Source: a virus. From it: a stretch of DNA of 64,000 bases. Each line of letters opens with the position of its first letter. Position 1 is the stretch's first letter. The stretch lies in IMG/VR virus record IMGVR_UViG_3300006903_000012. One strand, 5' to 3'. The notes beneath the pieces are model-generated. The model saw only the letters and a list, made by a program, of their open reading frames with translations, had not been told where the DNA came from and did no database searches. Positions 11,815-40,047 of the stretch are shown in pieces. The translations under genes and the position numbers were made by a program.

Positions 11815-11815
11815 A

Positions 11816-19044: not shown

Positions 19045-19914
19045 TTACCAATATTTCCATTCATCATATTCTATAATATCCTTACATCGCATTCGGAATA
19101 TTTGCTCATTGAACCGAGCGGTTTCTGAATTATTTGATCCACCAGAGAAATGATACAACTTCACCAACGGTTGATAGATAACTTTGCCACCTAATTTTCT
19201 AACTTGAAGACAATACTGTACATCCTCAAAATTGCCTTTAGTATAAATTGGATCCAAACCGCCAATTGTTTGATAGATATTTCTGCGTGTCATCAAACAC
19301 GCACCAGTCACTGCATTCATCTCCAATCGTTGGATCACTCTAGGATGCTCAGCTCGCCAACCTTGATAAATATGATATGGCTGACCTAAAAGATTGAAGA
19401 CCACCCCAGCATGTTGAATTTTACCTGCTGGCCGATTGGGTACAACTGAATCTTCAGGATATAACAATCGAGCACCGACGACCCCAACTTCCAAATCGCT
19501 AAACTCATCGGTCATTCGCCGCAGCCAACCGTCTTCGCATATCTCAATATCTGAGTTTAACAAAAGAATAATTGGTGAATGCCCACGACTGACACCGTTG
19601 TTATTTGAAACAGCAAACCCTGAATTTTTGTGATTACGGATAATTTTGATTCTTGAATCTTTTTTATAATCAGCATACAACTGATCTAATTCATCACCAT
19701 CAGGTCCCAAGTCATCGACTAGAAACAATCGCCAATCTATGCCCGCATCAAATTTTCTCAATGAATCAACCATAATTGATAAAAATCTTGGCTGCCCATA
19801 AACTGCTGTAACTATGTCAACTGATGTGATCGGTGACTGTTTCAGACTCAGAAAGTCCGTCTTCGTTACTTGCTTCCGAAATTGTCTTCGTGACATTATT
19901 GTCCACCACCTCAT
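19045..19914 (-). CDS. Family 2 (GT-A) glycosyltransferase; start uncertain (overlaps the upstream gene by ~98 nt)
   Basis: Motifs VDIVTAVYGQPRFL, LVDDLGPDGD, NSGFAVSNNNGV and LLLNSDIEI. Confidence 0.75.
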   Translation of the reverse strand: MRWWTIMSRRQFRKQVTKTDFLSLKQSPITSVDIVTAVYGQPRFLSIMVDSLRKFDAGIDWRLFLVDDLGPDGDELDQLYADYKKDSRIKIIRNHKNSGFAVSNNNGVSRGHSPIILLLNSDIEICEDGWLRRMTDEFSDLEVGVVGARLLYPEDSVVPNRPAGKIQHAGVVFNLLGQPYHIYQGWRAEHPRVIQRLEMNAVTGACLMTRRNIYQTIGGLDPIYTKGNFEDVQYCLQVRKLGGKVIYQPLVKLYHFSGGSNNSETARFNEQIFRMRCKDIIEYDEWKYW

Positions 19915-21019
19915 ATAATTTCATCGATTTTAGAATAACATCTGCTGCGACCGACCAACTATCAATCTTTTGTTTAGGAATGCGTCCTTGAACTAAAACC
20001 TGATGTAATTTTTCGACTGCATCAAGAATATTCAAACTATAATAATTGATACCACCCAATGGGTAAGAAAATATTTTGTCAGATGTAACTAACCCACCGC
20101 TGCCATTAAGTGCTTCATAAATATTTGGATGATCAGTGGCAACGATTGGGCAACCTTGTGAGCGAGCTTCATAAAGCGGTAGACCAATTCCTTCAGCATA
20201 AGACGGCAAAAGAAAACATTCTGCATTCTGATAAAGATACTTCAACTGTTCTTGAGATACAGATTTGTTATGCTTCAAATCCAAACGATCGGCTGGAAAT
20301 CCATATCTCGAACATAAATCATCAAAATCACCCCAACCATCGGGACTATCAATATTAGTTACAAGAACATAATCCCAGTTCAGATCATTAGAATACATTT
20401 CTCGGTACTTAGCTAAAATTTCAATAGCTGCCGATAAATTTTTTCTAATTTGATTATCGGCCACTGTCAAAATAAATGGCCGATCATTGTTACGAACTAT
20501 CGGTTCTGAAACATCGTCAAGCCAAAATTCATCTAAGCCCACTGGTAACCTAATCGCATCAATCAATCGTTTCTTCAACTCTGAAACACCAAAATCTGTA
20601 AATGTAAACCGAAGTGACGATGATAGCATCAATGTCTGTGCCCATTTTCGATAGAATGGATCACTCTCAACTGGGAAGATTGATGCTACTTTTTTGCCTT
20701 TATAAAAAACGAGATCATGCCGTAAAACACTATCAATAATTCCAGTTTGTTTCTGAATATCCATTAAAAACAATATCCAGTCAGGATTTATCTCTTTGGA
20801 TAAAACTCTCAACTGCTCCGGAAGCCAGGGAAGATGAGTTGGAATCAATCTAAACGGATAATCATGCTCACGACCGTCATAATTAATTCCTAAAACTGTA
20901 ACGTCACAACCCATCTCGCTAAATTGCTTAGCAAACGCCGCTGCAATAGATTGATACCCCGACGGAACTAAAAAATCACACAACATCAGCAACTTTAATT
21001 GGCTATTCGTCTCTGCCAT
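19817..21019 (-). CDS. GT-B (GT4-like) glycosyltransferase (400 aa)
   Basis: C-terminal EGIGLPLYEARSQGCPIVATD matches the E-x7-E region of GT4 enzymes. Confidence 0.7.
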   Translation of the reverse strand: MAETNSQLKLLMLCDFLVPSGYQSIAAAFAKQFSEMGCDVTVLGINYDGREHDYPFRLIPTHLPWLPEQLRVLSKEINPDWILFLMDIQKQTGIIDSVLRHDLVFYKGKKVASIFPVESDPFYRKWAQTLMLSSSLRFTFTDFGVSELKKRLIDAIRLPVGLDEFWLDDVSEPIVRNNDRPFILTVADNQIRKNLSAAIEILAKYREMYSNDLNWDYVLVTNIDSPDGWGDFDDLCSRYGFPADRLDLKHNKSVSQEQLKYLYQNAECFLLPSYAEGIGLPLYEARSQGCPIVATDHPNIYEALNGSGGLVTSDKIFSYPLGGINYYSLNILDAVEKLHQVLVQGRIPKQKIDSWSVAADVILKSMKLYEVVDNNVTKTISEASNEDGLSESETVTDHIS

Positions 21020-22065
21020 TCACTTGTCCATTCTGTTACTAGATTATCGTAACTAAACTGCATCGCATACGTCTGACAATTTAAGCGCATACGTTTCTTA
21101 GTTTCTTCGTTGAGCAAAAGCGCGCGAACTGTCTGCTCAACAAACTTATCTTGATAACGCTGATTGCTAGACCCATAAGTCGGAACAACATAACCAGTTA
21201 CCTTATTCAAGACTTTCTCCAACAAAGCAGCGCGACCAGAAACAACTGGAATTGTTCCCCACAACATACTTTCTAGAATCGCCATTCCGCACGTTTCATA
21301 AAAATCTGATGGATACAAATATAAATCCGCTTGCCGTTGAGCATCTCTAGCTATCTCTGAATTAGCATGCTTAAAATTCACAACATCCAAATCTCGAAGC
21401 GATTCAACTTTTGTATAAATACCTCTCACCATCTCTTCATTCTCTTCAGCTGTATGTCCCCAACCCATAAACGAACTATACAAATGAAGTGATGCAAAAG
21501 GTACTTGAGACTTTATTTTCGGCCAAACAGTTAACAGGTTATCTAGCCCACGCTCAGGTGTTGCCATGAAAATACAGCGACCAGGCACCTTGGTAACTAA
21601 CGGTAGATCGATAACCTCGACACCATTGGATGACACTAACCAGTGGTCATCGTGAATTTCTTCTTCTTTAGCAATTTTTTCCTTCTGCCAATGACTAACA
21701 GAAATAACTAAATCAATTCTTCCAGCTCGGATATCTTCACCCAAACCAACACTTTCAGTATCAGCCAAAAATAAAACCTTCAATTTTGTATTCAGATCCT
21801 GCTGAAATGGTTCTCGGTGCCGTAACGAGTAGACAACATCAAAATATTCTTTAGGATCAAACTGAGCGATGTTACTCCAAAGAAGTCCGCCACCATAATC
21901 TATTCGAACTGTTTCTAGTCGATTGAAGACGTGAACTTGATGACCTTGCTTGACTAAATATCTAACTGTATTCAGAAATCCATTTTCAGAACCGCCCAAG
22001 CCTTTTTCTTTATGAGTATGAATATCAAATGCTGGAATATTCTGGTATATCATTGCAATTTTCAT
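20995..22065 (-). CDS. GT-B (GT4-like) glycosyltransferase (356 aa)
   Basis: Motif YETCGMAILESMLWGTIPVVS, with an N-terminal GGSENG. Confidence 0.7.
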   Translation of the reverse strand: MKIAMIYQNIPAFDIHTHKEKGLGGSENGFLNTVRYLVKQGHQVHVFNRLETVRIDYGGGLLWSNIAQFDPKEYFDVVYSLRHREPFQQDLNTKLKVLFLADTESVGLGEDIRAGRIDLVISVSHWQKEKIAKEEEIHDDHWLVSSNGVEVIDLPLVTKVPGRCIFMATPERGLDNLLTVWPKIKSQVPFASLHLYSSFMGWGHTAEENEEMVRGIYTKVESLRDLDVVNFKHANSEIARDAQRQADLYLYPSDFYETCGMAILESMLWGTIPVVSGRAALLEKVLNKVTGYVVPTYGSSNQRYQDKFVEQTVRALLLNEETKKRMRLNCQTYAMQFSYDNLVTEWTSEWQRRIAN

Positions 22066-22770
22066 TTAGTCATCAACCCTTTCCGGCATCCCATATTTTC
22101 GACATAGTTTTTTACGACTATCGTGCATAATATCTAAAATCGAAACTCCATCATGAGTCATCCATGATAACGTTCCATGCCGAAGATGAGTTACCATTCC
22201 ATTATCTTCAATTCCGGTTGGTAAAAGTCGATATCCAGCCGCTAGAAGCCGTTGGCAGAAATCAACGTCTTCACAAGTAAATACAAATTGCTCATCGAAT
22301 GGTTTTCCATCCTGAACAATTTTCAATGCCACTTCTTTTCTAAATGCTAAGAAGGCTCCCTCTAAAAATGAAAATCCATTCCAACTCATCAGTCGGGAAC
22401 CAGCCATTCCAACATCAGGAATTCTAGCTGCGTTCGCAAGAGATGACATCCAACCAACTCGATTAAAAATCACATCGTTATTAAGAAGCAAAATAACATC
22501 ACTATTACTAGAAAGCTCGATGATATTATTCCAACAAAAAGCAATTGACTCATTCGTTGGATATTGATATGGATGCCGATAAACTTCAGATGTTTCTGCT
22601 AATGGTATAAGATAATCAAACAAGATGTTTGTCTTGCTACCATTATCAATGAGAATGATCTCATATTCTTCATCGGCTGTTGCCTTCAAAGTCTCCAAAC
22701 AGACTTTTGTCATTTCTAAAATCTCTGGTCGGCCAGGAACATCGTGCACAATTATTCCAACTGTAATCAT
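22066..22770 (-). CDS. Family 2 glycosyltransferase (234 aa), paralog of 29825..30550 and 31492..32196
   Basis: Motifs GIIVHD..., ILIDNGS, LLLNNDVIFNRVGW and FTCEDVDFCQR. Confidence 0.75.
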   Translation of the reverse strand: MITVGIIVHDVPGRPEILEMTKVCLETLKATADEEYEIILIDNGSKTNILFDYLIPLAETSEVYRHPYQYPTNESIAFCWNNIIELSSNSDVILLLNNDVIFNRVGWMSSLANAARIPDVGMAGSRLMSWNGFSFLEGAFLAFRKEVALKIVQDGKPFDEQFVFTCEDVDFCQRLLAAGYRLLPTGIEDNGMVTHLRHGTLSWMTHDGVSILDIMHDSRKKLCRKYGMPERVDD

Positions 22771-23672
22771 TGGATAACCCCGCGATACTTCAGAGTATCT
22801 AAGGCATGTTCCATTCTAATTTTGTAAGTTGCAGACTCTAAAATATATTGACGAGCAAGATCACCTGACTTCTCATCAGCAGAAGTCAGAGCTTCATCAA
22901 CGATTCGATATAATTGATCTAACGATGTGTAATCCCAAATAAAGGGACTATTAGGACTAAATAGTCGATTGATTGATGGGACAAAGTTCGTCACTAAAGG
23001 AATGCCACATGACAACGTTTCAAAAACTCGCATATTCACATCATAGGCCACCGGCTCGCCATAGAAAGAACTAATATTGAAACCGACTTTTGATCCACGC
23101 AAAACTGTCGCCCCTGCATTCATTAGAGCTACTCCATGCCCCAAGAAGCCCAGTCGATAGCGTTTAGCTAATTGATCCAAAACTTGCTGCCGAGTTGCAT
23201 CCCAAACATTGCCAACAAAACCAATATCATAAATTTTTTCTTGTTTGGGTTCATTATTCCACACATCCGGATCCGCTGCCAAGGGTAGCCAACTGACTCG
23301 ATTGATTTTATTAGCAAAACAATCTTCAACATCTTCTAATTGTGATTGAAACACCCAGCCGCCCGCAGCATTGATAATTTTACAAGTCGACAAATCAGTC
23401 GGATTCTTAAGAGTTTTTCCGCGTCGATAATCAATCATCCAAAAGCAAACTTTCTTCATATTTGGATGGGTTGCAATCTCAATATCAGTTAGATTCAGCG
23501 GCCCGCCGCTATCGACACAAAAATACAAATCGTAACTATCAGCTTTCAGTTCTCGATAAAAATCCCATTGCGATAAAATATCAACCTGATGTCCAAGCTG
23601 CTGAAACGCTCGCTTACTATACTCACCAGTAGTTCCAATTTCATAAGCGGCAATTGGAATTGCAATTTTCAT
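22767..23672 (-). CDS. CgeB-like glycosyltransferase (301 aa), paralog of 28503..29444
   Basis: It shares an architecture with 28503..29444 (DLYFCVDSG/DLFWCQDSG, SWLPLAADP/SWLPIAGDP, FETLSCGIPLVTN/FEAPLCGIPVVTP). Confidence 0.6.
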   Translation of the reverse strand: MKIAIPIAAYEIGTTGEYSKRAFQQLGHQVDILSQWDFYRELKADSYDLYFCVDSGGPLNLTDIEIATHPNMKKVCFWMIDYRRGKTLKNPTDLSTCKIINAAGGWVFQSQLEDVEDCFANKINRVSWLPLAADPDVWNNEPKQEKIYDIGFVGNVWDATRQQVLDQLAKRYRLGFLGHGVALMNAGATVLRGSKVGFNISSFYGEPVAYDVNMRVFETLSCGIPLVTNFVPSINRLFSPNSPFIWDYTSLDQLYRIVDEALTSADEKSGDLARQYILESATYKIRMEHALDTLKYRGVIQ

Positions 23673-24679
23673 ACTTTGACCGCCTCCAGACGGCGTTGTT
23701 TTTCGTAATGTATAAGTTTCCTAAGTCCTTCGAGCAATTCAACCATCGGTGTCCAGCCCAAATAATTTCTAGTTTTACGTATATCTAAAACATTGTAATC
23801 TACTTCTTCTAGATTATTCTCTAAAAATCGATATCGCAATTCTTGTTTTGGATATTGAATTTGGTATACTGAATGAAGTAAGCCTAAAATTGTTGTCTCA
23901 ATACTTGTTCCAATATTAAAAACAAGTTTGGGTGATCCGATTCCTTCAAACTCTAAAGATCGGACATTAGCGGCAACTACATCATCAATATAAATAAAGT
24001 CACGAATCTTAGAACCATCACCGTAAATGGTAGATATGCGATTAGAAAGAACATCATCAACGAACTTAGAAACCGCACCAGCTTCTCCCGATACCGACTG
24101 TCTAGGCCCATAGACATTACTATACCTAAGAACCAACAGCTGCCCAGAAAAAGTCTTAGTAAGAAGTTCTTCACAGTATTTTTTTGTCATCCCATAAATA
24201 TCTTTGGGATCTGTTGCATAATACTCTTGAATCGGTCTTTTACTATATTCTTGAGAACCATAAATCGCACCGCCGCTAGATGCAAAAATAAGTTTCTTAA
24301 CTCCATACCTATTACTCAGTTCTGAAACATTAACTGTGCCTAAAACATTTGTAGCAACATAGTCAGCTACATTGTCTTTTGCTTCACGAATTCGACAAAG
24401 AGCAGCATGATGATTGACGACTTCTGGTTGGAATTCAGCAAAAGTTTTTTGCAATCTATCAAATTCTAAAATCGAACAATGTTTAAAACTACATCGATTA
24501 TTATAAAGCTGTCTATTTGTCCAAGCTGGAATTGCTCCATGAAAAGATAACAGGTTATCTACGATCAAAACTTCGTGCCCAAGTTCAAGATACCTATCAA
24601 CAATATGAGAACCGATAAATCCTGCACCACCAGTAACTAGGATTCTCATTTTTCCATTCCAAACATATGACCGATCCAA
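23669..24679 (-). CDS. NAD-dependent sugar-nucleotide epimerase/dehydratase (extended SDR, GalE-like)
   Basis: Motifs ILVTGGAGFIGSH, YGMTKKYCEEL (YxxxK) and LRYSNVYGPRQ. Confidence 0.8.
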   Translation of the reverse strand: MDRSYVWNGKMRILVTGGAGFIGSHIVDRYLELGHEVLIVDNLLSFHGAIPAWTNRQLYNNRCSFKHCSILEFDRLQKTFAEFQPEVVNHHAALCRIREAKDNVADYVATNVLGTVNVSELSNRYGVKKLIFASSGGAIYGSQEYSKRPIQEYYATDPKDIYGMTKKYCEELLTKTFSGQLLVLRYSNVYGPRQSVSGEAGAVSKFVDDVLSNRISTIYGDGSKIRDFIYIDDVVAANVRSLEFEGIGSPKLVFNIGTSIETTILGLLHSVYQIQYPKQELRYRFLENNLEEVDYNVLDIRKTRNYLGWTPMVELLEGLRKLIHYEKQRRLEAVKV

Positions 24680-25356
24680 CGAACGTCCACTTCAATTGTT
24701 CGGCCATGTGGAACCATATAAAGTTTCCAGCCAGTTTCGAGATCATCACCAAAAACTTCTTTAAACATATTGACCCACCAAGTTACTGACTTCAAGTTCA
24801 CATGACTCTGATCTTGATCGGACGGCACTTGTCCATCGGGCAAATCAATTCCATCCCCAATACTGATTAAATGCACAATTCTAGTTGTTGCGACTCGGCG
24901 ACAATGCTCTAAACAACTTCTAACCTGCACCGGCGTCAAATGTTCAAGTACATCATTTGAGAAAATCAAATCCTGCGTATTATCTCCAAGTGCATACAAA
25001 TCGGAAATATCTTGCTCAATTAAATACGGTTGGACATCCGGATGTGCCGTTGAGACTGCATAATGCGAGTGATCGATACCCAATGGAATAACCGCTAAAT
25101 CTGGCAAGTTCAAAAATCCCCAGATCGCCCATCCACGACCACAGCCTAATTCTAAATAACTCTTGAACGGCCCCCAACGATTCCAGGTGTCTCGTGCCCA
25201 AGATTGACAAGCAGCAAGATTATTTGAATAGTCATTTCCATTATAGCTCCCACGACCAGACTCGTCACCTCTCTCCCAATAATCATAATCATAAAAATTC
25301 GCGGGAACAGATCCGTCTGAGTTCAATACTGGTTTATTTGTATAAGGTGCCGACAT
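24646..25356 (-). CDS. Class I SAM-dependent methyltransferase (236 aa)
   Basis: Motifs LELGCGRGW (motif I) and IFSNDVLEHL. Confidence 0.7.
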   Translation of the reverse strand: MSAPYTNKPVLNSDGSVPANFYDYDYWERGDESGRGSYNGNDYSNNLAACQSWARDTWNRWGPFKSYLELGCGRGWAIWGFLNLPDLAVIPLGIDHSHYAVSTAHPDVQPYLIEQDISDLYALGDNTQDLIFSNDVLEHLTPVQVRSCLEHCRRVATTRIVHLISIGDGIDLPDGQVPSDQDQSHVNLKSVTWWVNMFKEVFGDDLETGWKLYMVPHGRTIEVDVRWIGHMFGMEK

Positions 25357-25373
25357 TTTACTTACTCCTTAAT

Positions 25374-26456
25374 CTAGGAATACTTCTCAATCATTTCTCG
25401 ATATAACTGATTGTATTCAACAGCTGAGCGGCGAGCATCATACAGTTGATTTGCTCGTTTCGAACCGTAAAACCCTAACTTCCGACGAAGCTCATCATCG
25501 GATTCTAATAGAAGAGATATCGCATTAGCGTAAGACTTTGATTTATCTAGTGGCATGGGATCTTCACGAGCTGACTCGATATAAAATGCTGAAGCATCGC
25601 AAATCTCTTTACACACTGCATAATCATTGGTCACGATTGGAACTTGAGCGGCCATTGCCTCGACCATTACGCGCCCGAAAGACTCTTGCCAAGTTGGAAA
25701 ACAAAAAACATCCATTGCCCCAAAGGCAGTTGCTTTATCTCGTGTAAATCCAGGAAACCTTATATCAACACTTTTAGTAGTCGCTAGATGAATCGCGCGG
25801 CCCCGATCAACTCCATCACCGAACATAATAAATTGACAGTCGGGAAACTCATCTTTCACGAATTTGGCAATATCCAAAAACGAGAATGGACACTTAAATT
25901 GATCGAAGCGCCCGAACCAGCCAACTACAAGACGATTAGGATCAAGTCCCCATTTTTGCTTACATTCTTGTTTCGTCAAGTTTGTCTTGCATCGATCTAA
26001 ATCAACGCCGCCGACAATGACCTTGAACTCATCTTTACCATTACTACCATGAACCCAGTGCTTGTGGCTCAAATATACTGGCTGGACTTTTCCATATCGT
26101 TCCCAACCACCACTATACGAAACACAAGCTACCTGCTCAACTATTGGAAGTTGCAAATCCATTGCTGCTTGATATCCGTACTGCACATCACCACAAGCTA
26201 GAACATGAACTAATTGGATTTGATTATCAACTAAAATCTGCCGAAAATCCGAAACCGAACCGTTGCCTCTCACTCGATGAATCGGAACACCTAGCTCCTG
26301 CAATTCATCTAAAGATGCCGACCAACCAGAAGCATCTTCAGTCATAAAAATATATTCAAATTCGTTTCGATCAGAATACCGAATCTGATCGATAACCATA
26401 TCTTCCGCGCCACCAACTCCGGCCCAGTGCACATAATAAGCAATCCGAATAGGCAT
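25374..26456 (-). CDS. GT-B (GT4-like) glycosyltransferase (360 aa)
   Basis: Motif ESFGRVMVEAMAAQVPIVTND. Confidence 0.7.
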   Translation of the reverse strand: MPIRIAYYVHWAGVGGAEDMVIDQIRYSDRNEFEYIFMTEDASGWSASLDELQELGVPIHRVRGNGSVSDFRQILVDNQIQLVHVLACGDVQYGYQAAMDLQLPIVEQVACVSYSGGWERYGKVQPVYLSHKHWVHGSNGKDEFKVIVGGVDLDRCKTNLTKQECKQKWGLDPNRLVVGWFGRFDQFKCPFSFLDIAKFVKDEFPDCQFIMFGDGVDRGRAIHLATTKSVDIRFPGFTRDKATAFGAMDVFCFPTWQESFGRVMVEAMAAQVPIVTNDYAVCKEICDASAFYIESAREDPMPLDKSKSYANAISLLLESDDELRRKLGFYGSKRANQLYDARRSAVEYNQLYREMIEKYS

Positions 26457-27421
26457 TATAAAAGAATTCCGATCTCTTCCAGCATTTCTTGGATCTGTGG
26501 AATAGTTAGGCGAATATCAGGAATGTCAGATTGCTTCACATTTGTTGCCTTAGATTTATCCGGATGTACAACCAAAAGTTTTCCGATCTCGGTCTCAACC
26601 ATCTGTAATCGCTCATATTCGTCTGGCTCTAACAATGGTTCAATTAATCGCTCACCTGGACGAAATCCAACAACATCTGACCGATGCTTAGGATCAATAG
26701 CAGCAGCTAAATCGCCAATAAATAGATAGGGCATAACCCTACTCCAAATTACCCCATGCGAAAATTCAAAAGCTCCACCAAACAAAGAAACTTCGGCGGC
26801 CTGCATAGGTGTTATAGCGAATCTCATCATTCCAGGATCTGTAACTGTTAATGGTTCAAATTTATTTCTTTGCTCAAGAAATTTCCACACAACACTACCA
26901 CGACTACCCAAAACATTTCCATATCTAGAAACTGTTATCTTAGTATTTCGTTCGGGATATGAAAGAAATAATTTCTCCTGAAGACGTTTTGTCATTCCCA
27001 TAACGCCAGCAGGCGATGCAGCCTTATCAGAACTAATGCCAATCAAAATGCGAACATTGTTACTAATACTTGATTCCAAAACATTGATCGCACCCAGCAA
27101 ATTAATTTCTAGCGCTTCCGTGACATTTAATTCGCACAGATCAACATGCTTTAGAGCAGCAGCATGGATGACAATATCTTTACCTTTACAAACCTGCTCA
27201 ACTGCGAACCGATCCCGAACGTCACCTAAAACACCTTTTGTCCCAGGATACATTCGAAATGTTTCAGCTTGCAGTGTTTCATCACGACTAAAAATTGTAA
27301 TCTCGTCCGCCACATCAGTCAGCATGTCAATCATAGCTCGACCGATGCTACCGGAACCACCAGTAATCAATATTCGCGCACCGCGATAAAATTCTAAAAA
27401 CTTATACACGTCGCCTCCCAA
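26456..27421 (-). CDS. CapD/PseB/FlaA1-type UDP-sugar 4,6-dehydratase-like SDR (321 aa)
   Basis: Motifs ILITGGSGSIGRAM, SRDETLQ, GDVRD, IHAAALKHVDLCELNVTEA, ISSDKAASPAGVMGMTKRL. Confidence 0.8.
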   Translation of the reverse strand: MGGDVYKFLEFYRGARILITGGSGSIGRAMIDMLTDVADEITIFSRDETLQAETFRMYPGTKGVLGDVRDRFAVEQVCKGKDIVIHAAALKHVDLCELNVTEALEINLLGAINVLESSISNNVRILIGISSDKAASPAGVMGMTKRLQEKLFLSYPERNTKITVSRYGNVLGSRGSVVWKFLEQRNKFEPLTVTDPGMMRFAITPMQAAEVSLFGGAFEFSHGVIWSRVMPYLFIGDLAAAIDPKHRSDVVGFRPGERLIEPLLEPDEYERLQMVETEIGKLLVVHPDKSKATNVKQSDIPDIRLTIPQIQEMLEEIGILL

Positions 27422-27926
27422 CGTAATAACTAGAAGATTTCATTTTGCCCCATGACCAATCTTTATCTTTCCACAACTCACTTTTCAATTCAACTTCATC
27501 ACCATAATACCCACTTTCAAGTCGTTCGAAATTTGGATCAAACAACATTTCTAATGCCTGATGTGAAAGTCTCCAATAATCACCACTTGGATCATGGTAA
27601 GGAAATGCCCAAGGTATGGCTACAACTACATGTCCTCCCGAGCGAACAATATTTCCGATATTATTAATCGCCGCATATAAAGAAGGAATATGTTCAAGAG
27701 TATCAACTGTAATTAGAGTACCCACGGACCCATAAACCGAGCCACATATCTCGGTAATATCTATTACTTTATCAACATCTGGTTTATCGCGTTTATCCCA
27801 CACTTGATAATCAAATAAATCTTTAAATTGTCGATCAGTTTCACAACCACCCAAATCGACTATTGGACCTTGAAAATTATACTTACGATGTAACTCTGCA
27901 ATAAAAGGTGTTGTTTCAGGTCTCAT
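27402..27926 (-). CDS. SAM-dependent methyltransferase-like protein (174 aa)
   Basis: Motifs IVDLGG, TVDTLEHI and GGHVVVAIP. Confidence 0.55.
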   Translation of the reverse strand: MRPETTPFIAELHRKYNFQGPIVDLGGCETDRQFKDLFDYQVWDKRDKPDVDKVIDITEICGSVYGSVGTLITVDTLEHIPSLYAAINNIGNIVRSGGHVVVAIPWAFPYHDPSGDYWRLSHQALEMLFDPNFERLESGYYGDEVELKSELWKDKDWSWGKMKSSSYYVGRRRV

Positions 27927-28510
27927 TCTTTTCTCGCAATCCAGAGCGACGTGCCGAAAACACCACAGTGTCCACCGAAATCTAAAGAATTCAAATCTTG
28001 AACAACCTTACTGTCTGAGGAATTTGGATCATAATCATGGCAGATAATAACACCACCAGGTTTGAGTTTTTCCCAAGCCGCCATAACATCCTCTGCAGCA
28101 GTCAAATGGCATCCATCGATAAAGAACATTGAATAATTGACAACGTCTTGTTTCTCGGCAAACCATTCCTGACTAGTTTGCACGCACAATTTAACAAAAT
28201 AAGGTCGCAGGTTCCATTCATCAACTAGCGATTCAATACCTCGTTCCCACTCTTGCATCTCGTCCCAACTACGCTTACCGTGTTCTTGACCAGTCCCACT
28301 AAAATCATCGATACAAGTCAGATGCTTTAGTTTTTTTGGAGATGAATCGGCACATGCCTGTAAAATTGCAATCGTTGAGCGTCCTCGATAAGTTCCGATT
28401 TCAACAATCATAGCCGGTTCGGGCAACTTATAAACTTCTTCATATAAAACCATTGCCTCAGCTACATTAAACCAGCCTGGAATTTTATCCCATCGTTTTA
28501 CATCAAGCAT
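27923..28510 (-). CDS. Class I SAM-dependent (O-)methyltransferase, Methyltransf_24-like (195 aa)
   Basis: Motifs VEIGTYRGRST, FFIDGCH and LKPGGVIICHDY. Confidence 0.65.
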   Translation of the reverse strand: MLDVKRWDKIPGWFNVAEAMVLYEEVYKLPEPAMIVEIGTYRGRSTIAILQACADSSPKKLKHLTCIDDFSGTGQEHGKRSWDEMQEWERGIESLVDEWNLRPYFVKLCVQTSQEWFAEKQDVVNYSMFFIDGCHLTAAEDVMAAWEKLKPGGVIICHDYDPNSSDSKVVQDLNSLDFGGHCGVFGTSLWIARKE

Positions 28511-29444
28511 TTAAAACTCCTACATCTCGTAAATGATTAAGTGCATATTGAAGTCGAATATCATAAGTATGATGCCCCAAAACCCACGATCTCAACTCAT
28601 GTGTAAGTAATCCATCTTGCATTGCCATATAAGCTCGGTTAACTTGCTGCGGAATTTCTTCTAATGAATTGTAGATAAAGATTTGAAACCCATCCTGAAA
28701 CCCAAGTTTCTCAAAATCGGGCATTGGTGGAGTCACAACTGGAATTCCACATAATGGAGCCTCGAAGTACCGCATGGTTACATCGTAATCTACTCGCTCA
28801 TGCGTTACATCGTGTGGCAAATTATAGAATGTTGGAGCATGAAAACAAACCCAACTATCTCGATAAACCTTCGCAGCTTCTTTATAGAATAAACTATTTG
28901 GACCGGGCCAGAATAATTGACAAGTATCACGAGCATAATTTAATGCTGAACCTCGACCACTATCATAACAATTTCCGACAAAAGAACATTTATGAATTGG
29001 TTGATAAGATTGTGGCTCATTTGACCATTCAAACGGATCACCGGCGATTGGTAACCAACTTATTCTAGGATCATTTATATTTCCTGGAACTGTATAATAT
29101 CCAAATCTATCTAAATCAGGGCTTTGAGCTTGGAACACCCAACCACCTTTTTCCATAACCCATCGAGCCATATCATCATCACCAGGATTTCGTTGAACAC
29201 GATTCCAGCGTGAATCCCAGTACCACATTGATGTCCTTTTCAAATGAGCATCAGACGCTCGCCGAAAGTCAATGCCTTCACCGGAGTCTTGGCACCAAAA
29301 TAAATCATACTCATTCGGATCAGCAGCAAAATATTCATCCGGTGTCATTCGTCTAGTTTCATGCCCCAAACGCTGCAAAGCCTTGATCGTATAATTAGGT
29401 GCCGCACCAATATTGTCGACTGCAAACACAACTGGGATTCTCAT
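28503..29444 (-). CDS. CgeB-like glycosyltransferase (313 aa), paralog of 22767..23672
   Basis: See 22767..23672; the motifs are shared. Confidence 0.6.
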   Translation of the reverse strand: MRIPVVFAVDNIGAAPNYTIKALQRLGHETRRMTPDEYFAADPNEYDLFWCQDSGEGIDFRRASDAHLKRTSMWYWDSRWNRVQRNPGDDDMARWVMEKGGWVFQAQSPDLDRFGYYTVPGNINDPRISWLPIAGDPFEWSNEPQSYQPIHKCSFVGNCYDSGRGSALNYARDTCQLFWPGPNSLFYKEAAKVYRDSWVCFHAPTFYNLPHDVTHERVDYDVTMRYFEAPLCGIPVVTPPMPDFEKLGFQDGFQIFIYNSLEEIPQQVNRAYMAMQDGLLTHELRSWVLGHHTYDIRLQYALNHLRDVGVLNA

Positions 29445-29818
29445 AGTTTCTTCAATCCTTTTACACCCGACCAGCCCATAATTCCTGTCTCAGCCCCGCT
29501 ATGCTGTATCCATTGCTTATCATCTGAAATACTTAACTGGTTAACTTTCTGTCCCAGACTCAACTGACCCAAAACTTTCGAACCAAGCATACTTGGCTTG
29601 TCTCGAATATTCCAAACAGGTACGATCACTTCCCACATAAATCCGCTATGTGGATTTTCAGCTTTCGGTTCGCCATATGGATAAATATCACCACGTTCTT
29701 TGAGATCATCTAGCATTAGGTGCAAGTGTTGACTTATCCGAATTTGCAAATCCAACCGATCAACTGGAATAGAAACAAACCACAAATAATTAGTTATTTC
29801 AGCAACAGAATCAGCCAT
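29441..29818 (-). CDS. Hypothetical protein with a C-terminal SH3b-like segment (125 aa)
   Basis: The C-terminus GSKVLGQLSLGQKVNQLSISDDKQWIQHSGAETGIMGWSG fits the bacterial SH3 pattern (G..V.........W......G..GW). Confidence 0.45.
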   Translation of the reverse strand: MADSVAEITNYLWFVSIPVDRLDLQIRISQHLHLMLDDLKERGDIYPYGEPKAENPHSGFMWEVIVPVWNIRDKPSMLGSKVLGQLSLGQKVNQLSISDDKQWIQHSGAETGIMGWSGVKGLKKL

Positions 29819-29824
29819 GTAACT

Positions 29825-30550
29825 TTACTCCTTTCGTCCGTGCTTCTGGATCAAATATTCAAACTCAGGCTTCCGCTTCTCAAGAACAGATTGTTCGCTC
29901 TCATTACTATAAACTGTTTGAGAAACTAAATGAGTCATCATCGGATCATCACCCAATTCGACGCCAGGAACATGAGTTACCACATAACCTGCTTTCGACA
30001 TCCGAATCGACAAATCAACATCTTGACAAGAATAATTGAATTTTTCATCTAAGATTTTGCCATCTTCAGCGATTGATAAAGCAGTTGCCAAGTTGAATCC
30101 CCAAATCCCACCAGTCGCAAATGGATGACCAAAGACTGACATTGCGCTAGAACCAACTAATCCAGTACCCGGAACATGCAATCGATTTGATAGAGCTTCT
30201 AACCAACCTTCTTTCTTAAAAATCACATCGTTATTAAGAAGCCAAACATCAATTTCTTCTCTGGGAGTACTCGGATAAGTCTTCATCAGCGCATTAATGC
30301 CACGATTCCAACCTTCTGAAATTCCACAACCCTTTGCAGAGAGATAACCGGCCGTTATAAAACTATGTGGAGCTACAAAATTCAAAAATGTAGTAGCACC
30401 AAATTCTTCCAGCATATCTCCAGCGTCTACAAGAATCAAATAAATGTAAGGAGTAAAATTTTCGTTACCAATAAGCGTTTCTTTTAGAGTCTCTAAACAT
30501 TGCCAAGTCAAATCCTTACGACCTTTGACTGTCATAATTACTGCATTCAT
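29825..30550 (-). CDS. Family 2 glycosyltransferase (241 aa)
   Basis: Motifs LILVDAGD, WLLNNDVIFKKEGW and YSCQDVDLSIR. Confidence 0.7.
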   Translation of the reverse strand: MNAVIMTVKGRKDLTWQCLETLKETLIGNENFTPYIYLILVDAGDMLEEFGATTFLNFVAPHSFITAGYLSAKGCGISEGWNRGINALMKTYPSTPREEIDVWLLNNDVIFKKEGWLEALSNRLHVPGTGLVGSSAMSVFGHPFATGGIWGFNLATALSIAEDGKILDEKFNYSCQDVDLSIRMSKAGYVVTHVPGVELGDDPMMTHLVSQTVYSNESEQSVLEKRKPEFEYLIQKHGRKE

Positions 30551-31479
30551 CGACTTTTCTCCGTCATTTTCATTCGCTTATACCACTCAATTGTTTTCTG
30601 CAAACCTTCTTCTAATTGAATCTTAGCCGTCCAGCCAAATTCTTTGCTAATCCGCTCAACACTTACCCGGCGACGCGGTTGACCATTTGGTTTTGACAAA
30701 TCATAAACAATCTCACCCGTATATCCACACAGTCGGGCAATAATCATTGCCAATTCTTTAATTCGAATCTCGACCCCAGAACCGACGTTGTAGACTGTTT
30801 CCTTATTTTCATTCTCAGCAATTAATTTGATCGCAGCTGCCGCATCATCTACATATAAAAATTCTCGCGTCGCCAAACCATCACCCCATACCACAACTTC
30901 TTTCTCGTTCCGTTCAGCAGCTCTAACAAATTTCTTAATCAATGCCGGGATCACATGCGAAACATCATCGCCAAATTTATCACCGGGACCATATAAATTC
31001 GTTGGAATAACGGTTACCCCATTGAACCCAAATTGCTCACGATACGCATCAAGCATAACCATCAAGGTTCGTTTAGCAATTCCATACGGTGCATTTGTTT
31101 CTTCAGGATAGCCATTCCAAATCTCTTCCTCTCGAAACGGCACTGAACAAAACTTAGGATACGAACAAACAGTACCAACCAAAACAAATTTTTCTACCTT
31201 ATTCAAAAAGCAAGAATGAATTGTATTTATTCCCATCTGCAAATTATCAACAAGAAATGCACTCGGAAAAGATTTATTAGCACCGATTCCACCGACACGG
31301 GCAGCTAGATGAATAACTGTATCAGGTTTCCAGCCAGTTATCAGTTTACCTAAACCGTCTGAATAAATCAAATCTGTTTCATCATTGTGCCCCATCGGCA
31401 AAGTCTTATATTCTTTTTCCAATAATTCACAAAGTTTTGTTCCTAAAAATCCAGTGGCTCCTGTTACTAAAGCACGCAT
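30547..31479 (-). CDS. fcl: GDP-L-fucose synthase-like SDR (GDP-4-keto-6-deoxymannose 3,5-epimerase/4-reductase)
   Basis: Motifs ALVTGATGFLG, YGIAKR, PTNLYGPGDKFGDDVSHVIPALIKKF, VVWGDGLATREFLYVDD. Confidence 0.75.
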   Translation of the reverse strand: MRALVTGATGFLGTKLCELLEKEYKTLPMGHNDETDLIYSDGLGKLITGWKPDTVIHLAARVGGIGANKSFPSAFLVDNLQMGINTIHSCFLNKVEKFVLVGTVCSYPKFCSVPFREEEIWNGYPEETNAPYGIAKRTLMVMLDAYREQFGFNGVTVIPTNLYGPGDKFGDDVSHVIPALIKKFVRAAERNEKEVVVWGDGLATREFLYVDDAAAAIKLIAENENKETVYNVGSGVEIRIKELAMIIARLCGYTGEIVYDLSKPNGQPRRRVSVERISKEFGWTAKIQLEEGLQKTIEWYKRMKMTEKSR

Positions 31480-31491
31480 ATACTGCTCCTT

Positions 31492-32196
31492 CTAATCATG
31501 GATATTGATGTCGTCTCGCCCCAAAGTTCCTAACCATTTATAGCAAAATTCCAGTCGTGAGATATGGGCTAACCGTTGATACTCAATCAAATCATCTTTA
31601 TAGTAATTCCTTGTTGCTCCTTCGAGATGTTCGATGTACTCGCCTTTGAGATAATCAAGCGGCCGAATTTTATAACCATCTAACTGAACTCGATGATTGA
31701 AGTCGACTTCTTCACAAGTAAAGAGGAATCTTTCATCAAATCCCAATTCACCATGAGCCAAGAATCGTTCTAGCCTAAAAGCAAAGATACTACCTTGAAT
31801 AAAGGCAACATTCTGCCACGACATGCCCGTCATCCCAACAATTCCGACTTCTTGATTTTGCAGCTCGTTTTCAAATGCTTCTAACCAACCAGACTTATGA
31901 AAGATAAGATCATTATTACAAATCAGTATCTTATATTGAGTACTCATCTGATACCCGAGATTCCAAGCTTTCGACAAATTAACTGAATCTTCAAGGAGTA
32001 CAGGCCTTGTAACTATTTTGTCCTTATTAGCTACTGACCAAATACAAAAGTTCAACCAAGACTCTCGATCAGGAGAGCCGTTATCAATATAAATCAATTC
32101 CAAAACTTTATTTGGTGTTGTTTCTATAAGTGTATTTAGAAACTGCTCCGTGACTGACCACATGCCTTTTGCCACAACAATCACTGACCAAGTCAT
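31492..32196 (-). CDS. Family 2 glycosyltransferase (234 aa)
   Basis: Motifs LIYIDNGSPD, LICNNDLIFHKSGW and FTCEEVDFNHR. Confidence 0.7.
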   Translation of the reverse strand: MTWSVIVVAKGMWSVTEQFLNTLIETTPNKVLELIYIDNGSPDRESWLNFCIWSVANKDKIVTRPVLLEDSVNLSKAWNLGYQMSTQYKILICNNDLIFHKSGWLEAFENELQNQEVGIVGMTGMSWQNVAFIQGSIFAFRLERFLAHGELGFDERFLFTCEEVDFNHRVQLDGYKIRPLDYLKGEYIEHLEGATRNYYKDDLIEYQRLAHISRLEFCYKWLGTLGRDDINIHD

Positions 32197-32205
32197 TTTT
32201 TTCTC

Positions 32206-32535
32206 TCACCTTATAACAGTAATATTCAGACGATTAGCTAATCTAACAAACAATAAAGAAACGGCCGCAACTGAAAAAATCGAAATAACAGAATCAAACA
32301 CTATCGAAGCAGTTAAAGCCAAAGGCAAAGGAAATACAAGATGATAAATCAAAAGTAGAAAGGTCGAGACCCAATACGACATACATAAATCACAATTAAA
32401 TGGTCTTCCGGCCAATTCAGGAAATGTATCTAACCACTTATTTTTAAATCTCTGCCAAAGCATTGGATGACTAGCATCATCTAAGAAGTAAACGATAAAT
32501 CCAGCTGCTAAACCTATCCATAATAGTTTATCCAC
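32206..32535 (-). CDS. Small integral membrane protein (109 aa, about 3 TM)
   Basis: Hydrophobic segments LLWIGLAAGFIVYFL, WVSTFLLLIYHLVFPLPLALTASIVF and SIFSVAAVSLLFV. Confidence 0.55.
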   Translation of the reverse strand: MDKLLWIGLAAGFIVYFLDDASHPMLWQRFKNKWLDTFPELAGRPFNCDLCMSYWVSTFLLLIYHLVFPLPLALTASIVFDSVISIFSVAAVSLLFVRLANRLNITVIR

Positions 32536-33949
32536 GATTTATTTCTCCTGTATAAATCTGATTCACGTCTGGTGTCTGCCCAACTTCAAAGAACTTCTTT
32601 AGATACCCATCCGCCACTACTGTTATTTGATCGGGTGTAAATTGCAACCAAATAATCCACTCAGGATGATTGATACCCATTCGATAATCATTCCGAACTG
32701 CAAAAACTGTTTCAGAATGTTCTTCACGGAGTAATATCGAACCAGCATTTGATTTCTTATAATAACTTGGATGTTTTGCTTTGTCATCAATTACGGGTAC
32801 ATCGCCCACCACTGGTTCCAATTTTACTTCGGGCTCACTAACGACCTGTTGAACAACGATCGGTCCCAATGGTTGCGTGTCGCCGCTATAAATCTTATCA
32901 GCAAAAAATTCTGGCTCCACTAACTCAACATCATCCCACTTAAAGCCTAATTCGATTAACCATTTAGGATCACTCAACTTGATGTAGTGATTTTCACGAT
33001 ACGCATAGACTTGTGGATCAAAACCAATTTTCAGTAAACTAGCCGATAGATGCTTGTGATAATGAATAGGGTCCGACCAGTCTTGTGAATCGGTCCACTT
33101 TTTTGCATTAGCATATTTACCGACACCATGCTTCGCATCAATAAAAGTAATATTCGCTTGAACCTCGCGACTGTTGGCTTTTTGATCGCGCGGATGCCAC
33201 ACATGAAAACCAAAAATCGACTTGTAAAATAACCAGTCTGTGCCAGCCTCATCCGCTGTCAATCCAAGATCAGCATCTTCACCACCATGACCGACGATTC
33301 GCTCATCAAAACCACCCAGTTGCCAAAATAGATTTTTAGGATAAGAAATATTACCAGATAAGGCACCCAACCCCGAACCTTTACGAATGGCAGTTAGATC
33401 ATCTGTAAAATCAGCAGACCGAATATCTGGCCCAAAGGGACTATCGTTTGGAATACTTAACAACAATTGTCGAGACATAACTGTCTGCATTAGACTATCA
33501 AAACTCGGTGCCTTCCATAATAGTTCAGGCTCAAACCAATCAACTGGTGGCAACCAATGATACTGACCAACGATAATACAATCCGGTTGAGCTTCAGATG
33601 CCTTTGCATATGCCGCTAAAGCGTTTTCATTTAGAACAACGTCACTATCGACAAAAATGTAACGGTCACCGTTGGCATTGAAGGCGCCGATATTTCTAGC
33701 ACGTCCACCACGGAATCCTTTATTCGGACCTCCAGATAGATACCCTAACCAATTCCAAGCAGTAGATTTTCCTCCAGACATCCCATCAAAATTTAAATCA
33801 GCGACCCAATCCCCAGTTAAACCATCTGTTGAACCATCATCAACTACAATTACTTCAAAATCTGGTGGATTAATCTGCTGTGCTAATGATGCTAAACACA
33901 ACTTCAAATTTTCTAATCGATTATACACCGGGATAATAACTGACAGCAT
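32528..33949 (-). CDS. Family 2 glycosyltransferase with a long C-terminal extension (473 aa)
   Basis: Motifs LSVIIPVYNRLENL, VVDDGSTDG and FVDSDV, with an AAGGAG RBS. Confidence 0.75.
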   Translation of the reverse strand: MLSVIIPVYNRLENLKLCLASLAQQINPPDFEVIVVDDGSTDGLTGDWVADLNFDGMSGGKSTAWNWLGYLSGGPNKGFRGGRARNIGAFNANGDRYIFVDSDVVLNENALAAYAKASEAQPDCIIVGQYHWLPPVDWFEPELLWKAPSFDSLMQTVMSRQLLLSIPNDSPFGPDIRSADFTDDLTAIRKGSGLGALSGNISYPKNLFWQLGGFDERIVGHGGEDADLGLTADEAGTDWLFYKSIFGFHVWHPRDQKANSREVQANITFIDAKHGVGKYANAKKWTDSQDWSDPIHYHKHLSASLLKIGFDPQVYAYRENHYIKLSDPKWLIELGFKWDDVELVEPEFFADKIYSGDTQPLGPIVVQQVVSEPEVKLEPVVGDVPVIDDKAKHPSYYKKSNAGSILLREEHSETVFAVRNDYRMGINHPEWIIWLQFTPDQITVVADGYLKKFFEVGQTPDVNQIYTGEINRG

Positions 33950-37633: not shown

Positions 37634-37855
37634 CTACTGTATTATATCATATTCTACCGCGTAAACTTCAAAAGATATTGCCGTACACCCGGGCATCAAG
37701 TCCTTGAAACTGAGCGGGGTCTGTGTTGATTTGTAAACCAGCGGTTCACCGTTGTGGAACACACGCAACGGATAAACCGTCGAACTAAACGTCTTATCAC
37801 CCACCGCCGTCGCCGGGTACCGGAAGTCAGGCACCAGGATCAAGCGACCGATAGA
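37634..37855 (-). CDS. Major capsid protein, predicted exon 8 of 8 (SIGRLILVPDFRYPATAV...YAVEYDIIQ*)
   Basis: The track ORF 37634..37843 starts at an internal TTG. The frame is open upstream to a G (37856; alternative 37865) that can serve as the terminal G of intron I7. Confidence 0.6.
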   Translation of the reverse strand, partial: SIGRLILVPDFRYPATAVGDKTFSSTVYPLRVFHNGEPLVYKSTQTPLSFKDLMPGCTAISFEVYAVEYDIIQ

Positions 37856-40023: not shown

Positions 40024-40047
40024 ACCCCCATTACTTGAACGCAAGTT
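40024..40047 (-). CDS. Major capsid protein, predicted micro-exon 5 (NLRSSNGG)
   Basis: 24 nt between the G at 40048 (1 nt after the I4 P9 hairpin) and the U-G splice site at 40024, in frame, followed by an intron-initial UAA. Confidence 0.4.

Follow-up and report, generated by a model that had tools for sequence, protein, structure and literature searches.

That phages can glycosylate their own virions is already established. In PMC12363180, which cites Freeman et al. 2023, the virions of mycobacteriophages Che8, Corndog and Myrna are reported to be glycosylated, and glycans on mycobacteriophage capsid and tail-tube subunits are described as lowering antibody recognition (Freeman et al. 2023, as cited in PMC12363180, PMC12619734 and PMC13313380). 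The virion glycosylation literature that we searched deals only with actinobacteriophages and with cassettes of a few genes. Here we describe an island of 18 genes, predicted to serve sugar-nucleotide synthesis, glycosyl transfer and methylation, that lies among the structural genes of an uncultured phage, IMG/VR record IMGVR_UViG_3300006903_000012. The DNA analyzed is a stretch of 64 kb, hereafter the window, which represents ≈57% of a metagenome-assembled source contig whose length is given as 111.5-112.0 kb, depending on the sample. We found no report in the literature of a transferase island this large within a phage structural module, nor a description of a system of comparable scale in a tailed phage.

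The closest described arrangement is that of Corndog, in which gp35 (TylF/Methyltransf_24), gp37 (GT2-like) and gp38 (GT25-like) lie between the portal gp34 and the protease gp39. Corndog and the window both carry their own transferases and a TylF/Methyltransf_24 methyltransferase within the head-gene module. The two differ in that the Corndog cassette comprises ≈3-4 genes rather than 18, lacks sugar-nucleotide enzymes as well as CgeB-like and GT4 transferases, and runs from portal to protease, whereas the island in the window runs from capsid to adaptor; in addition, the host group of Corndog is the Actinobacteria. Corndog gp35 and the window gene at 27923 belong to the same Pfam families, yet neither 27923 with gp35 nor 31492 with gp37 could be aligned significantly by BLASTP (gp38 and Che8 gp110 were not compared).

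From the sequence of the island and its surroundings, we propose, with a probability of roughly 0.55, that it encodes a pathway that makes a glycan and attaches it to a component of the virion, acting in the cytoplasm during head assembly. Candidate targets would lie in the head, as the capsid or an accessory protein, or among the proteins of neck and tail. We favor a virion-linked role because the island holds a fixed position after the capsid gene in all ten contexts examined, because the identity of its core transferases among relatives roughly tracks that of the structural genes, and because the Corndog cassette, which is validated by experiment, likewise sits within the head module.

Organization of the island

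Eighteen consecutive open reading frames (ORFs) fill the interval from 33949 down to 19045, in agreement with a preliminary description of this DNA. All lie on the minus strand, as do all long ORFs of the window. They are listed here from the capsid-proximal end and are cited below by their lower coordinate; labels rest on Pfam gathering scores, and the transferases and short-chain dehydrogenase/reductase (SDR) enzymes were also compared with NCBIfam equivalog cut-offs.

32528..33949, minus strand: GT2 glycosyltransferase (GT-A fold), 473 aa, first island gene, core; PF00535 73.3 bits, plus Glyco_tranf_2_2
32206..32535, minus strand: small membrane protein, 109 aa, ≈3 transmembrane segments predicted from hydrophobicity; weak DUF1360 match, E=0.0055
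31492..32196, minus strand: GT2-type, 234 aa, one of three paralogues; PF00535 33.2 bits
30547..31479, minus strand: GDP-L-fucose-synthase (Fcl)-like SDR (3,5-epimerase/4-reductase type); NF047922 297 bits against a cut-off of 500, PF01370 181 bits
29825..30550, minus strand: GT2-like paralogue, 241 aa, assigned by paralogy only; no Pfam or NCBIfam match
29441..29818, minus strand: ORF of 125 aa; SH3_3 E=0.17, 12.5 bits, not significant
28503..29444, minus strand: CgeB-like (Glyco_trans_1_2); PF13524 46.8 bits
27923..28510, minus strand: S-adenosylmethionine (SAM) methyltransferase, class I, Methyltransf_24/TylF type; PF13578 64.7 bits, weak TylF match
27402..27926, minus strand: probable methyltransferase, 174 aa, sub-threshold; PF13489 19.5 bits against a cut-off of 27
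26456..27421, minus strand: CapE/FnlA-like, UDP-GlcNAc 4,6-dehydratase-type SDR; PF02719 (Polysacc_synt_2) 213.6 bits
25374..26456, minus strand: GT4-type (GT-B fold); PF13692 65.2 bits, PF00534 64.3 bits
24646..25356, minus strand: SAM methyltransferase (Methyltransf_11/25); PF08241 33.9 bits
23669..24679, minus strand: GalE-like extended SDR (epimerase or reductase); PF01370 160.5 bits, TIGR01179 151.7 bits against a cut-off of 262
22767..23672, minus strand: CgeB-like, core; PF13524 47.7 bits
22066..22770, minus strand: GT2-type, sub-threshold, core; PF00535 19.6 bits against a cut-off of 23.3, MftF-like E=4e-10
20995..22065, minus strand: GT4-type, core; PF00534 38.8 bits
19817..21019, minus strand: GT4-type, core; PF00534 50.4 bits
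19045..19914, minus strand: GT2, last island gene, core, abutting the adaptor gene; PF00535 56.8 bits

The contents amount to five GT2-type, three GT4-type and two CgeB-like ORFs, along with three methyltransferases, three SDRs, one small membrane protein and one unassigned ORF. By Pfam and paralogy, the phage itself therefore encodes ten ORFs of GT2, GT4 or CgeB type, with two of the glycosyltransferase calls and one methyltransferase call being sub-threshold or based on paralogy. The preliminary description had arrived at much the same inventory. Its three GT4-like enzymes (19817, 20995 and 25374, matching PF00534/PF13692) and its two CgeB-like transferases (22767 and 28503, matching PF13524) stand, as does its small membrane protein, 32206 being the sole island ORF with predicted transmembrane segments. 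Three of its five GT2 enzymes score above the PF00535 cut-off, but 22066 falls short of it and 29825 matches no Pfam family; both can be retained as paralogues. Likewise, the methyltransferase calls for 27923 and 24646 are solid, but that for 27402 is sub-threshold. The GalE-like and Fcl-like assignments hold, but 26456, which had been called CapD/PseB-like, is better described as CapE/FnlA-like, and the match behind the SH3b-like label for 29441 is not significant.

The spacing between neighboring island genes ranges from -98 to +23 nt, with overlap or abutment at 13 of the 17 internal junctions. Neither GC content nor skew shows a break at either edge of the island. In a scan of positions 17000-36900, promoter-like matches did not exceed the number expected from shuffled sequence, and terminator-like matches were weak and all within ORFs. 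The island is, by its layout, one co-oriented block of overlapping or abutting genes that may share a transcript and would be expressed together with the late head genes.

Predicted activities of the island enzymes

The first island gene, 32528, encodes a 473-aa GT2 that carries a C-terminal extension of ≈170 aa, and its closest solved structure is the GT2 domain of chondroitin synthase, with weaker matches to TarS, GalT1 and TarP. Its N-terminal half aligns weakly with both TarS (E=3e-6) and TarP (E=1.5e-3), and it also matches polysaccharide synthases. The motifs DDGS, DxD and GGEDAD are invariant across our alignment of this protein (alignment A1), for which we collected 94 homologues, all metagenomic, ≈40 of them at 39-56% identity. 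For the last island gene, 19045, the best solved matches are weak and are to polypeptide GalNAc-transferases (E=2e-5); its homologues are 263-281 aa long, and the real start of the gene probably lies downstream of 19914.

The remaining GT2-type proteins form a set of three paralogues (22066, 29825 and 31492) with pairwise identities of 30-33% (E 1e-21 to 1e-31, and 1e-21 to 1e-27 for 29825 with the other two), and we accept 22066 and 29825 as GT2-type because of this relationship to 31492. The two CgeB-like proteins, 22767 and 28503, are also paralogues of one another (33% identical). No transmembrane segment is predicted in any GT2 protein of the island.

Among the sugar-nucleotide enzymes, 30547 is ≈40% identical to the Fcl of cyanophages. 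The SDR encoded by 26456 falls between the NCBIfam PseB and FnlA models, below both equivalog cut-offs, and its closest solved relative is CapE, at 167 bits. A methionine occupies the site of the SDR tyrosine, with the segment GVMGMTK aligned to NAMGISK of CapE as against NLYGATK of PseB. The resulting Ser-Met-Lys arrangement is one that we take to be the signature of CapE/FnlA-type enzymes, which provide entry to 6-deoxy-L-N-acetylhexosamine (HexNAc) routes. Because the best structural match is CapE and a methionine replaces the SDR tyrosine, we assign 26456 as CapE/FnlA-like rather than PseB-like, with the corresponding activity as a prediction.

The methyltransferase 27923 is probably a sugar O-methyltransferase, judging from its family. 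For the sub-threshold candidate 27402, homologues in the relatives L011/L005 and L013 (introduced below) are 40-46% identical, and the L005 copy has a weak match to Methyltransf_23. The presence of the CapE-like dehydratase together with two further SDRs and three methyltransferases makes it reasonable to suppose, as the preliminary description did, that methylated deoxy-sugars would form part of the product.

Conservation and modularity among relatives

Relatives were reached through homologues of the adaptor, the 473-aa GT2 and the capsid protein on long metagenomic contigs, to which we refer by L numbers. Six are syntenic with the window (L011/L005, L012, L013, L018, L023 and L028), and three more (L036, L037 and L038) are distant relatives by their capsid proteins. 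In each of the contexts examined (10 of 10), down to a capsid identity of 46%, the capsid gene is followed by an island of glycosyltransferase and methyltransferase type. The syntenic order begins with a protease-like ORF, a scaffold gene, the capsid gene, a conserved 88-aa ORF and variable ORFs, and continues with a homologue of 33973 (in four of the six), the 473-aa GT2, further island genes, two GT4 genes, a GT2 gene and the adaptor.

Six transferases form a core that is kept wherever the contig reaches: 32528, a 234-aa GT2-like protein, a CgeB-like protein, 20995, 19817 and 19045. Homologues of 20995 (38-54% identity) occur in every relative whose contig extends that far, those of 22767 occur in L011, L012, L018, L023 and L028 at 41-57% identity, and those of 19817 are 31-38% identical. 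The small membrane protein, which gives no match to GtrA (PF04138), is also widespread: of the six syntenic relatives, L011, L012, L013, L018 and L023 have a homologue of 32206 as the gene that follows the 473-aa GT2, and none was detected in L028.

A second module, 24646-30550, comprises a GT2-like and a CgeB-like transferase, two methyltransferases, the CapE-like SDR, a GT4 and a further methyltransferase. The window, L011, L013 and L018 have this module, L012 and L028 lack it, and L023 retains from it just a homologue of the methyltransferase 27923. Its methyltransferase 24646 is 51-68% identical to the homologues in L011, L013 and L018. Since the module repeats the GT2-like and CgeB-like pair of the core, its composition suggests an internal duplication. 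The window holds the largest version of the island that we have seen, with three genes of its own: the Fcl-like 30547, for which no homologue was found in L011, L012, L013, L018, L023 or L028; the GalE-like 23669, for which no orthologue was found in L011 or L018; and ORF 29441, which has neither a PHROG match nor a homologue in the relatives examined.

The distant relatives carry comparable genes that begin only a few genes past the capsid gene. These are GT2, GT4, CgeB-like and methyltransferase genes in L037 (capsid 56% identical), SDR, GT2, CgeB-like and methyltransferase genes in L036 (49%), and SDR, GT2, CgeB-like and radical-SAM genes in L038 (46%). In both L036 (9224-10260) and L038 (13771-14832), the GT2 and CgeB-like genes are separated, midway through the island, by genes for a ClpP-like protease and a cREC_REC receiver-like domain. 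B12-binding radical-SAM enzymes occur in the distant islands of L017 and L038 (19695-21056), and L017 also encodes, within 3947-11888, an HldE-like bifunctional heptose kinase/adenylyltransferase and a split transketolase- or E1-like pair.

Identity among relatives is 31-58% for the proteins of the island and falls in the same range for neck and tail proteins, and L028 is the most divergent relative for island and structural genes alike. Four out of five core transferases show pairwise identities that correlate with those of the adaptor (r=0.48-0.74, over 10 non-independent pairs). The shared range, the parallel divergence of L028 and, more modestly, the correlation with the adaptor speak for an island that has been long resident and vertically inherited rather than recently inserted.

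A predicted virion glycosylation pathway and its alternatives

If the island glycosylates the virion, its gene content would fit the following route. The CapE-like 26456 would convert UDP-GlcNAc into a 4-keto-6-deoxy intermediate, which the Fcl-like 30547 and the GalE-like 23669 would epimerize or reduce to donors of the 6-deoxy-HexNAc type. One GT-A enzyme would start the chain on a protein side chain, the island-end core enzymes 32528 and 19045 being the candidates, and the other GT2, GT4 and CgeB-like enzymes would lengthen and branch it, with O-methylation of sugars by the island methyltransferases. The six-transferase core would thereby provide a conserved base glycan, to be elaborated by the partly distributed module 24646-30550 and the window-only SDRs into serotype-like diversity among related phages. 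By analogy with the mycobacteriophages, the benefit might be a shielded or altered virion surface.

Clustering of sugar-nucleotide enzymes with several transferases (here three SDRs and ten transferases) is also seen in surface polysaccharide loci. The window, however, yielded no Pfam match to a sugar-phosphate transferase, flippase, polymerase or ligase and no family match to an ABC exporter; among the window ORFs scanned, there was neither an initiating polyprenyl-phosphate sugar-phosphate transferase nor a multi-span membrane protein. The components of gtrABC systems, namely GtrA (PF04138), a GtrB with C-terminal helices and a multi-span GtrC, are likewise absent from the island. By the content of the window, then, the island does not belong to the surface-polysaccharide, gtrABC or DNA-glycosylation families. 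The preliminary description had taken the lack of flippase, polymerase and lipid-carrier transferase as an argument against a conventional pathway for host-surface polysaccharide. The observation holds within the window, but the argument carries less weight than it was given: TarS, TarP and TarM are cytoplasmic transferases that decorate host teichoic acid without any phage-encoded export, and the 64 kb seen leave ≈47 kb of the source contig that could encode Gmd, a flippase or a polymerase.

These two points weigh against virion glycosylation, and so do several others. The capsid protein yielded no acceptor motif, and its C terminus is short and conserved, without a Ser/Thr-rich extension (alignment A2). 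No island transferase attains any NCBIfam equivalog cut-off, and the two CgeB-like ORFs matched no NCBIfam model at all. A purely cytoplasmic scheme leaves the small membrane protein of five of the six syntenic relatives unexplained, and the lack of pairwise similarity to the Corndog methyltransferase and GT2-like protein makes that precedent one of analogy. The proposal of cytoplasmic virion glycosylation made in the preliminary description is partly supported, by the gene content, by the position in the virion module and by the ten contexts.

The enzymes might instead remodel the host envelope, with soluble transferases decorating a host glycopolymer at the cytoplasmic face of the membrane and the host exporting the product. 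The acceptor could be teichoic acid under synthesis, a glycolipid, or a lipid-linked precursor of O-antigen or capsule, and the phage would gain by blocking superinfection by rival phages or by preventing readsorption of its progeny to lysing cells. Decoration at the cytoplasmic face requires no flippase from the phage, the small membrane protein could anchor the enzymes at the membrane, and the similarity of the N-terminal half of the 473-aa GT2 to TarS, TarP and polysaccharide synthases points the same way. So do the best NCBIfam matches of the transferases, which, though sub-threshold, are mostly to exopolysaccharide, teichuronic-acid, glycolipid and thiol-biosynthesis enzymes, and so do the large sugar clusters that other uncultured phages have beside replication genes (L002). 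We nevertheless consider this account unlikely, since the place of the island between capsid and neck is fixed in all ten contexts while the capsid diverges to 46% identity, and since tight packing with late structural genes would imply late expression and little time to change the cell surface. Moreover, no integrase or lysogeny gene was noticed in the window, and the hosts of such divergent relatives may differ, so that each would have to offer a compatible acceptor polymer. The same capsid linkage is left unexplained if the product is a free or non-covalently bound polysaccharide, or if the protein glycosylated is a phage or host protein outside the virion, such as a cytoplasmic decoy or an assembly factor. 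Ten transferases are admittedly more typical of polysaccharide repeat units than of short phage protein O-glycans, the capsid protein is without an acceptor motif that we could find, and the variable proteins between the capsid gene and the island (ConA/GH16-like and Gly/Thr-rich in L011, L013 and L018) could be the real partners. Against this, we recognized neither a primer nor any component for lipid carriage or export, and to our knowledge the cytoplasmic multi-transferase systems that work without lipid carriers, namely flagellin islands, the spore crust and giant-virus fibrils, act on proteins. We hold this possibility to be quite improbable.

Glycosylation of the phage DNA, in which the transferases would hypermodify bases and so evade restriction, appears very improbable. 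Phage transferases that hypermodify DNA with glycans do exist (bioRxiv 10.1101/2023.12.21.572611), and the replication and modification part of this genome falls outside the window. The island itself, however, contains no base-modifying enzyme and no transferase of the TAGT or T4-type DNA families. A content of GT4, CgeB-like, CapE-like and O-methyltransferase genes is moreover atypical of DNA glycosylation. In the distant relative L037 the two sets of genes are separate: its DNA-hypermodification genes, TAGT (PF20691) and ADDT (PF18724), lie at 11-1866, upstream of the head genes and apart from a capsid-adjacent island that persists. Some members of the clade probably modify their own DNA as well. 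Virion glycosylation remains the reading that we prefer.

Structural genes flanking the island

The island is bounded by the following structural and conserved genes, of which the adaptor stands outside the proposed pathway.

18364..19044, minus strand: head-tail adaptor, downstream flank; phrog_442, E=1.1e-8
33973..34512, minus strand: conserved 179-aa protein just upstream of the island; Cys-rich N-terminal domain and a long Pro/Glu/Ala/Gln-rich disordered region
36567..43296, minus strand: major capsid protein gene (HK97 fold), ≈9 exons, upstream flank; exon mapping, Foldseek, Rfam RF00028

Homologues of the adaptor (37-45% identity) follow the island in L005, L012, L023 and L028. Small ORFs of neck and tail come next; among the proteins of the tail region, one of 208 aa is the best conserved (64% identity to L005), and one of 936 aa is probably the tape measure. 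ORF 15733-16359 is assigned to the tail tube. On the other side, the earlier placement of the island between capsid and connector genes is correct in that both flanks are structural, but the capsid gene is not directly adjacent, as five small ORFs (33973-35909) intervene between the island and the last capsid exon at 36567-36662. The first of these, 33973, has homologues at the equivalent position in L012, L013, L018 and L023 and no family match; its product could, speculatively, be a head accessory protein or a substrate for the glycan.

The capsid gene is split into ≈9 exons by ≈8 introns over 6.7 kb and includes two 24-nt micro-exons. Exons were mapped against the uninterrupted genes of L023 (450 aa) and L028 (440 aa), so that boundaries are approximate.

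43296-43021, minus strand: capsid exon 1
42531-~42485, minus strand: capsid exon 2
42293-42270, minus strand: capsid exon 3
41260-~40964, minus strand: capsid exon 4
~40040-40017, minus strand: capsid exon 5
39692-39447, minus strand: capsid exon 6
38395-38288, minus strand: capsid exon 7
~37870-37650, minus strand: capsid exon 8
36662-36567, minus strand: capsid exon 9
41290-42126, minus strand: intronic DUF559-type homing-endonuclease ORF
40239-40946, minus strand: intronic DUF559-type homing-endonuclease ORF
38449-39303, minus strand: intronic DUF559-type homing-endonuclease ORF
36813-37616, minus strand: intronic HNH homing-endonuclease ORF

A search with the Rfam group I intron model (RF00028) picks up just three of the capsid introns. 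Such a density of introns in a single phage gene seems exceptional; the capsid introns of relatives are at other positions or, in L023 and L028, absent.

The spliced product of 446 aa is 80% identical over 99% of its length to an uninterrupted metagenomic protein, P0099. An AlphaFold2 model of P0099, built from 33 aligned homologues with a mean predicted local distance difference test (pLDDT) score of 59.9, gave 260 Foldseek matches at E<=1e-3, and all 50 of the matches listed are HK97-fold capsid, encapsulin or derived shell proteins. The single-sequence AlphaFold2 model of the spliced capsid itself reached a pLDDT of 31. A composite capsid sequence of a relative matches phrog_212, "major head protein", weakly (E=1.3e-4). 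An incomplete concatenate of the exons had no match in Pfam, PHROGs or PDB sequence searches, and a profile from the capsid alignment (A2) had none in the PDB. Because of the intact homologues, the phrog_212 match and the HK97-fold Foldseek matches, together with a gene order that follows portal, protease and scaffold, we identify the product, by homology and modeled fold, as an HK97-fold major capsid protein.

Upstream of the capsid gene, an acidic ORF of 523 aa is scaffold-like. Farther upstream, a 1689-aa ORF (48201-53270, minus strand) combines a portal (phrog_2662), a MuF-like head-morphogenesis domain (phrog_2468) and a C-terminal phrog_9154 domain. Just upstream of this fusion are a group I intron (RF00028, 54.7 bits) at 53326-53505 and a homing-endonuclease ORF at 53560-54432 (minus strand), so the portal gene may have an upstream exon, possibly 54462-54914. 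The motif K-H-[LFP]-[PG]-G-[KQH]-[HED]-D-Q-[SQG]-x-H-[GA] occurs in five copies in a 1106-aa ORF (44896-48216, minus strand) upstream of the scaffold gene, and it is also found near the N terminus of five small ORFs between the capsid gene and the island of L012 (5509-9986). It may be a capsid-targeting or protease-cleavage signal.

In three relatives, large Gly/Ala/Thr-rich proteins of beta type are encoded directly upstream of the island (L011 5137-6726, L013 7450-8712 and L018 2099-4476), and one of these three also has a Glyco_hydro_16 protein (ConA-like fold) upstream of it; the window has neither. These Gly/Ala/Thr-rich or ConA-like proteins could be head fibers or decoration proteins and thus possible carriers of the glycan.

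Distribution in sequence collections

The island and its capsid family are virtually confined to metagenomes in our searches. Against 50,697 deposited phage records, megablast with the island DNA and tblastn with the portal each returned no match, and tblastn with the capsid homologue P0099 found none among deposited phage genomes. In tblastn with 14 of the 18 ORFs (23669-27421 being left out), no deposited phage showed two or more island homologues together; matches to island proteins are single genes, such as Fcl in cyanophages or a lone GT2 or GT4. In IMG/VR, a scan with the portal gave no match and one with the GT2 alignment gave just three distant loci. Three contigs recovered by an IMG/VR scan with Fcl (L002-L004) were rejected as relatives, being unrelated phages with sugar clusters beside replication genes.

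At E<=1e-5, 1085 metagenomic proteins belong to the capsid family, none with an informative name. A scan of GTDB genomes gave no close relative and hence no hint of the host. The only organism label in the family is that of a 'Candidatus Hodarchaeales' metagenome-assembled genome on P0177 (L036, JGI Ga0452210_000798). We discount this archaeal label as a probable mis-binning, since the sister contig L038 encodes a bacterial DNA polymerase III beta clamp (1285-2424).

An unrelated phage with a T4-type portal, L019 (JGI Ga0366832_1000590), has a sugar cluster of its own a few genes upstream of the portal, at 10001-16365; besides a fused GT2-GT2 gene it holds single GT2, methyltransferase, GT4, acetyltransferase and DegT aminotransferase genes. 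Islands of sugar genes next to structural genes may have arisen on more than one occasion.

Implications and comparison with known systems

A broader proposal, which we regard as tentative and on the doubtful side of even, is that a large clade of uncultured tailed phages routinely builds a partly methylated 6-deoxy-HexNAc heteroglycan on its virions, using up to ten transferases in the cytoplasm and no lipid carrier. By analogy, such a clade would be the phage counterpart of Mimivirus fibril glycans and the spore crust, with swappable modules giving rise to virion 'serotypes'. If this is true, heavy and elaborate virion glycosylation would be a regular feature of an environmental phage clade that is widespread and lies beyond the actinobacteriophages. 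It would bear on the contact of virions with host surfaces, grazers and environmental particles, on their stability and stickiness, and on the evolution of virion antigenic diversity, given modules that have apparently been gained, duplicated and lost. The link between capsid family and transferase island in 10 of 10 contexts is a concrete comparative signal, and the island would be a source of soluble transferases, methyltransferases and predicted 6-deoxy-HexNAc enzymes.

Comparable gene content is known from eukaryotic viruses. The clusters responsible for the capsid glycans of chlorovirus PBCV-1 and for Mimivirus fibrils encode many soluble transferases, SDRs that include the UDP-GlcNAc 4,6-dehydratase type, and sugar methyltransferases. 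Their products are complex glycans, partly of methylated deoxy and amino sugars, that are placed on virion proteins independently of host lipid carriers, and the clusters vary by lineage. The likeness to the window is one of general gene content, the giant viruses being viruses of eukaryotes with jelly-roll capsids.

In bacteria, the spore crust of Bacillus (cgeB, sps and cotSA) is built by soluble GT2, GT4 and CgeB transferases, dehydratases and methyltransferases encoded beside a self-assembling structural protein, without flippase or polymerase. Flagellin glycosylation islands provide the other bacterial comparison for cytoplasmic protein glycosylation (PMC13317340). Flagellin and spore-crust islands share with the window GT2, GT4 and CgeB transferases, a dehydratase of PseB/CapE type and methyltransferases, the window having two proteins of PF13524. 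The window differs from flagellin islands in having no flagellin, Maf, nonulosonic-acid synthase or aminotransferase, and the assembling structure beside its island is a phage head.

Among phages, clusters of the cyanophage and pelagiphage type (P-SSM2, S-SRM01 and S-SKS1) resemble the window in carrying an Fcl-like SDR at ≈40-56% identity, but their capsid families are unrelated to that of the window. The L002 cluster has many transferases, as the window does, but lies beside DNA polymerase III alpha and SSB (single-stranded DNA-binding protein) genes rather than in a virion module. Set against these systems, what is new in the island is its scale, with ten transferases combined with predicted donor synthesis and methylation, its modular variation among relatives and its strict link to a large capsid family that is uncultured throughout and lies outside the actinobacteriophages.

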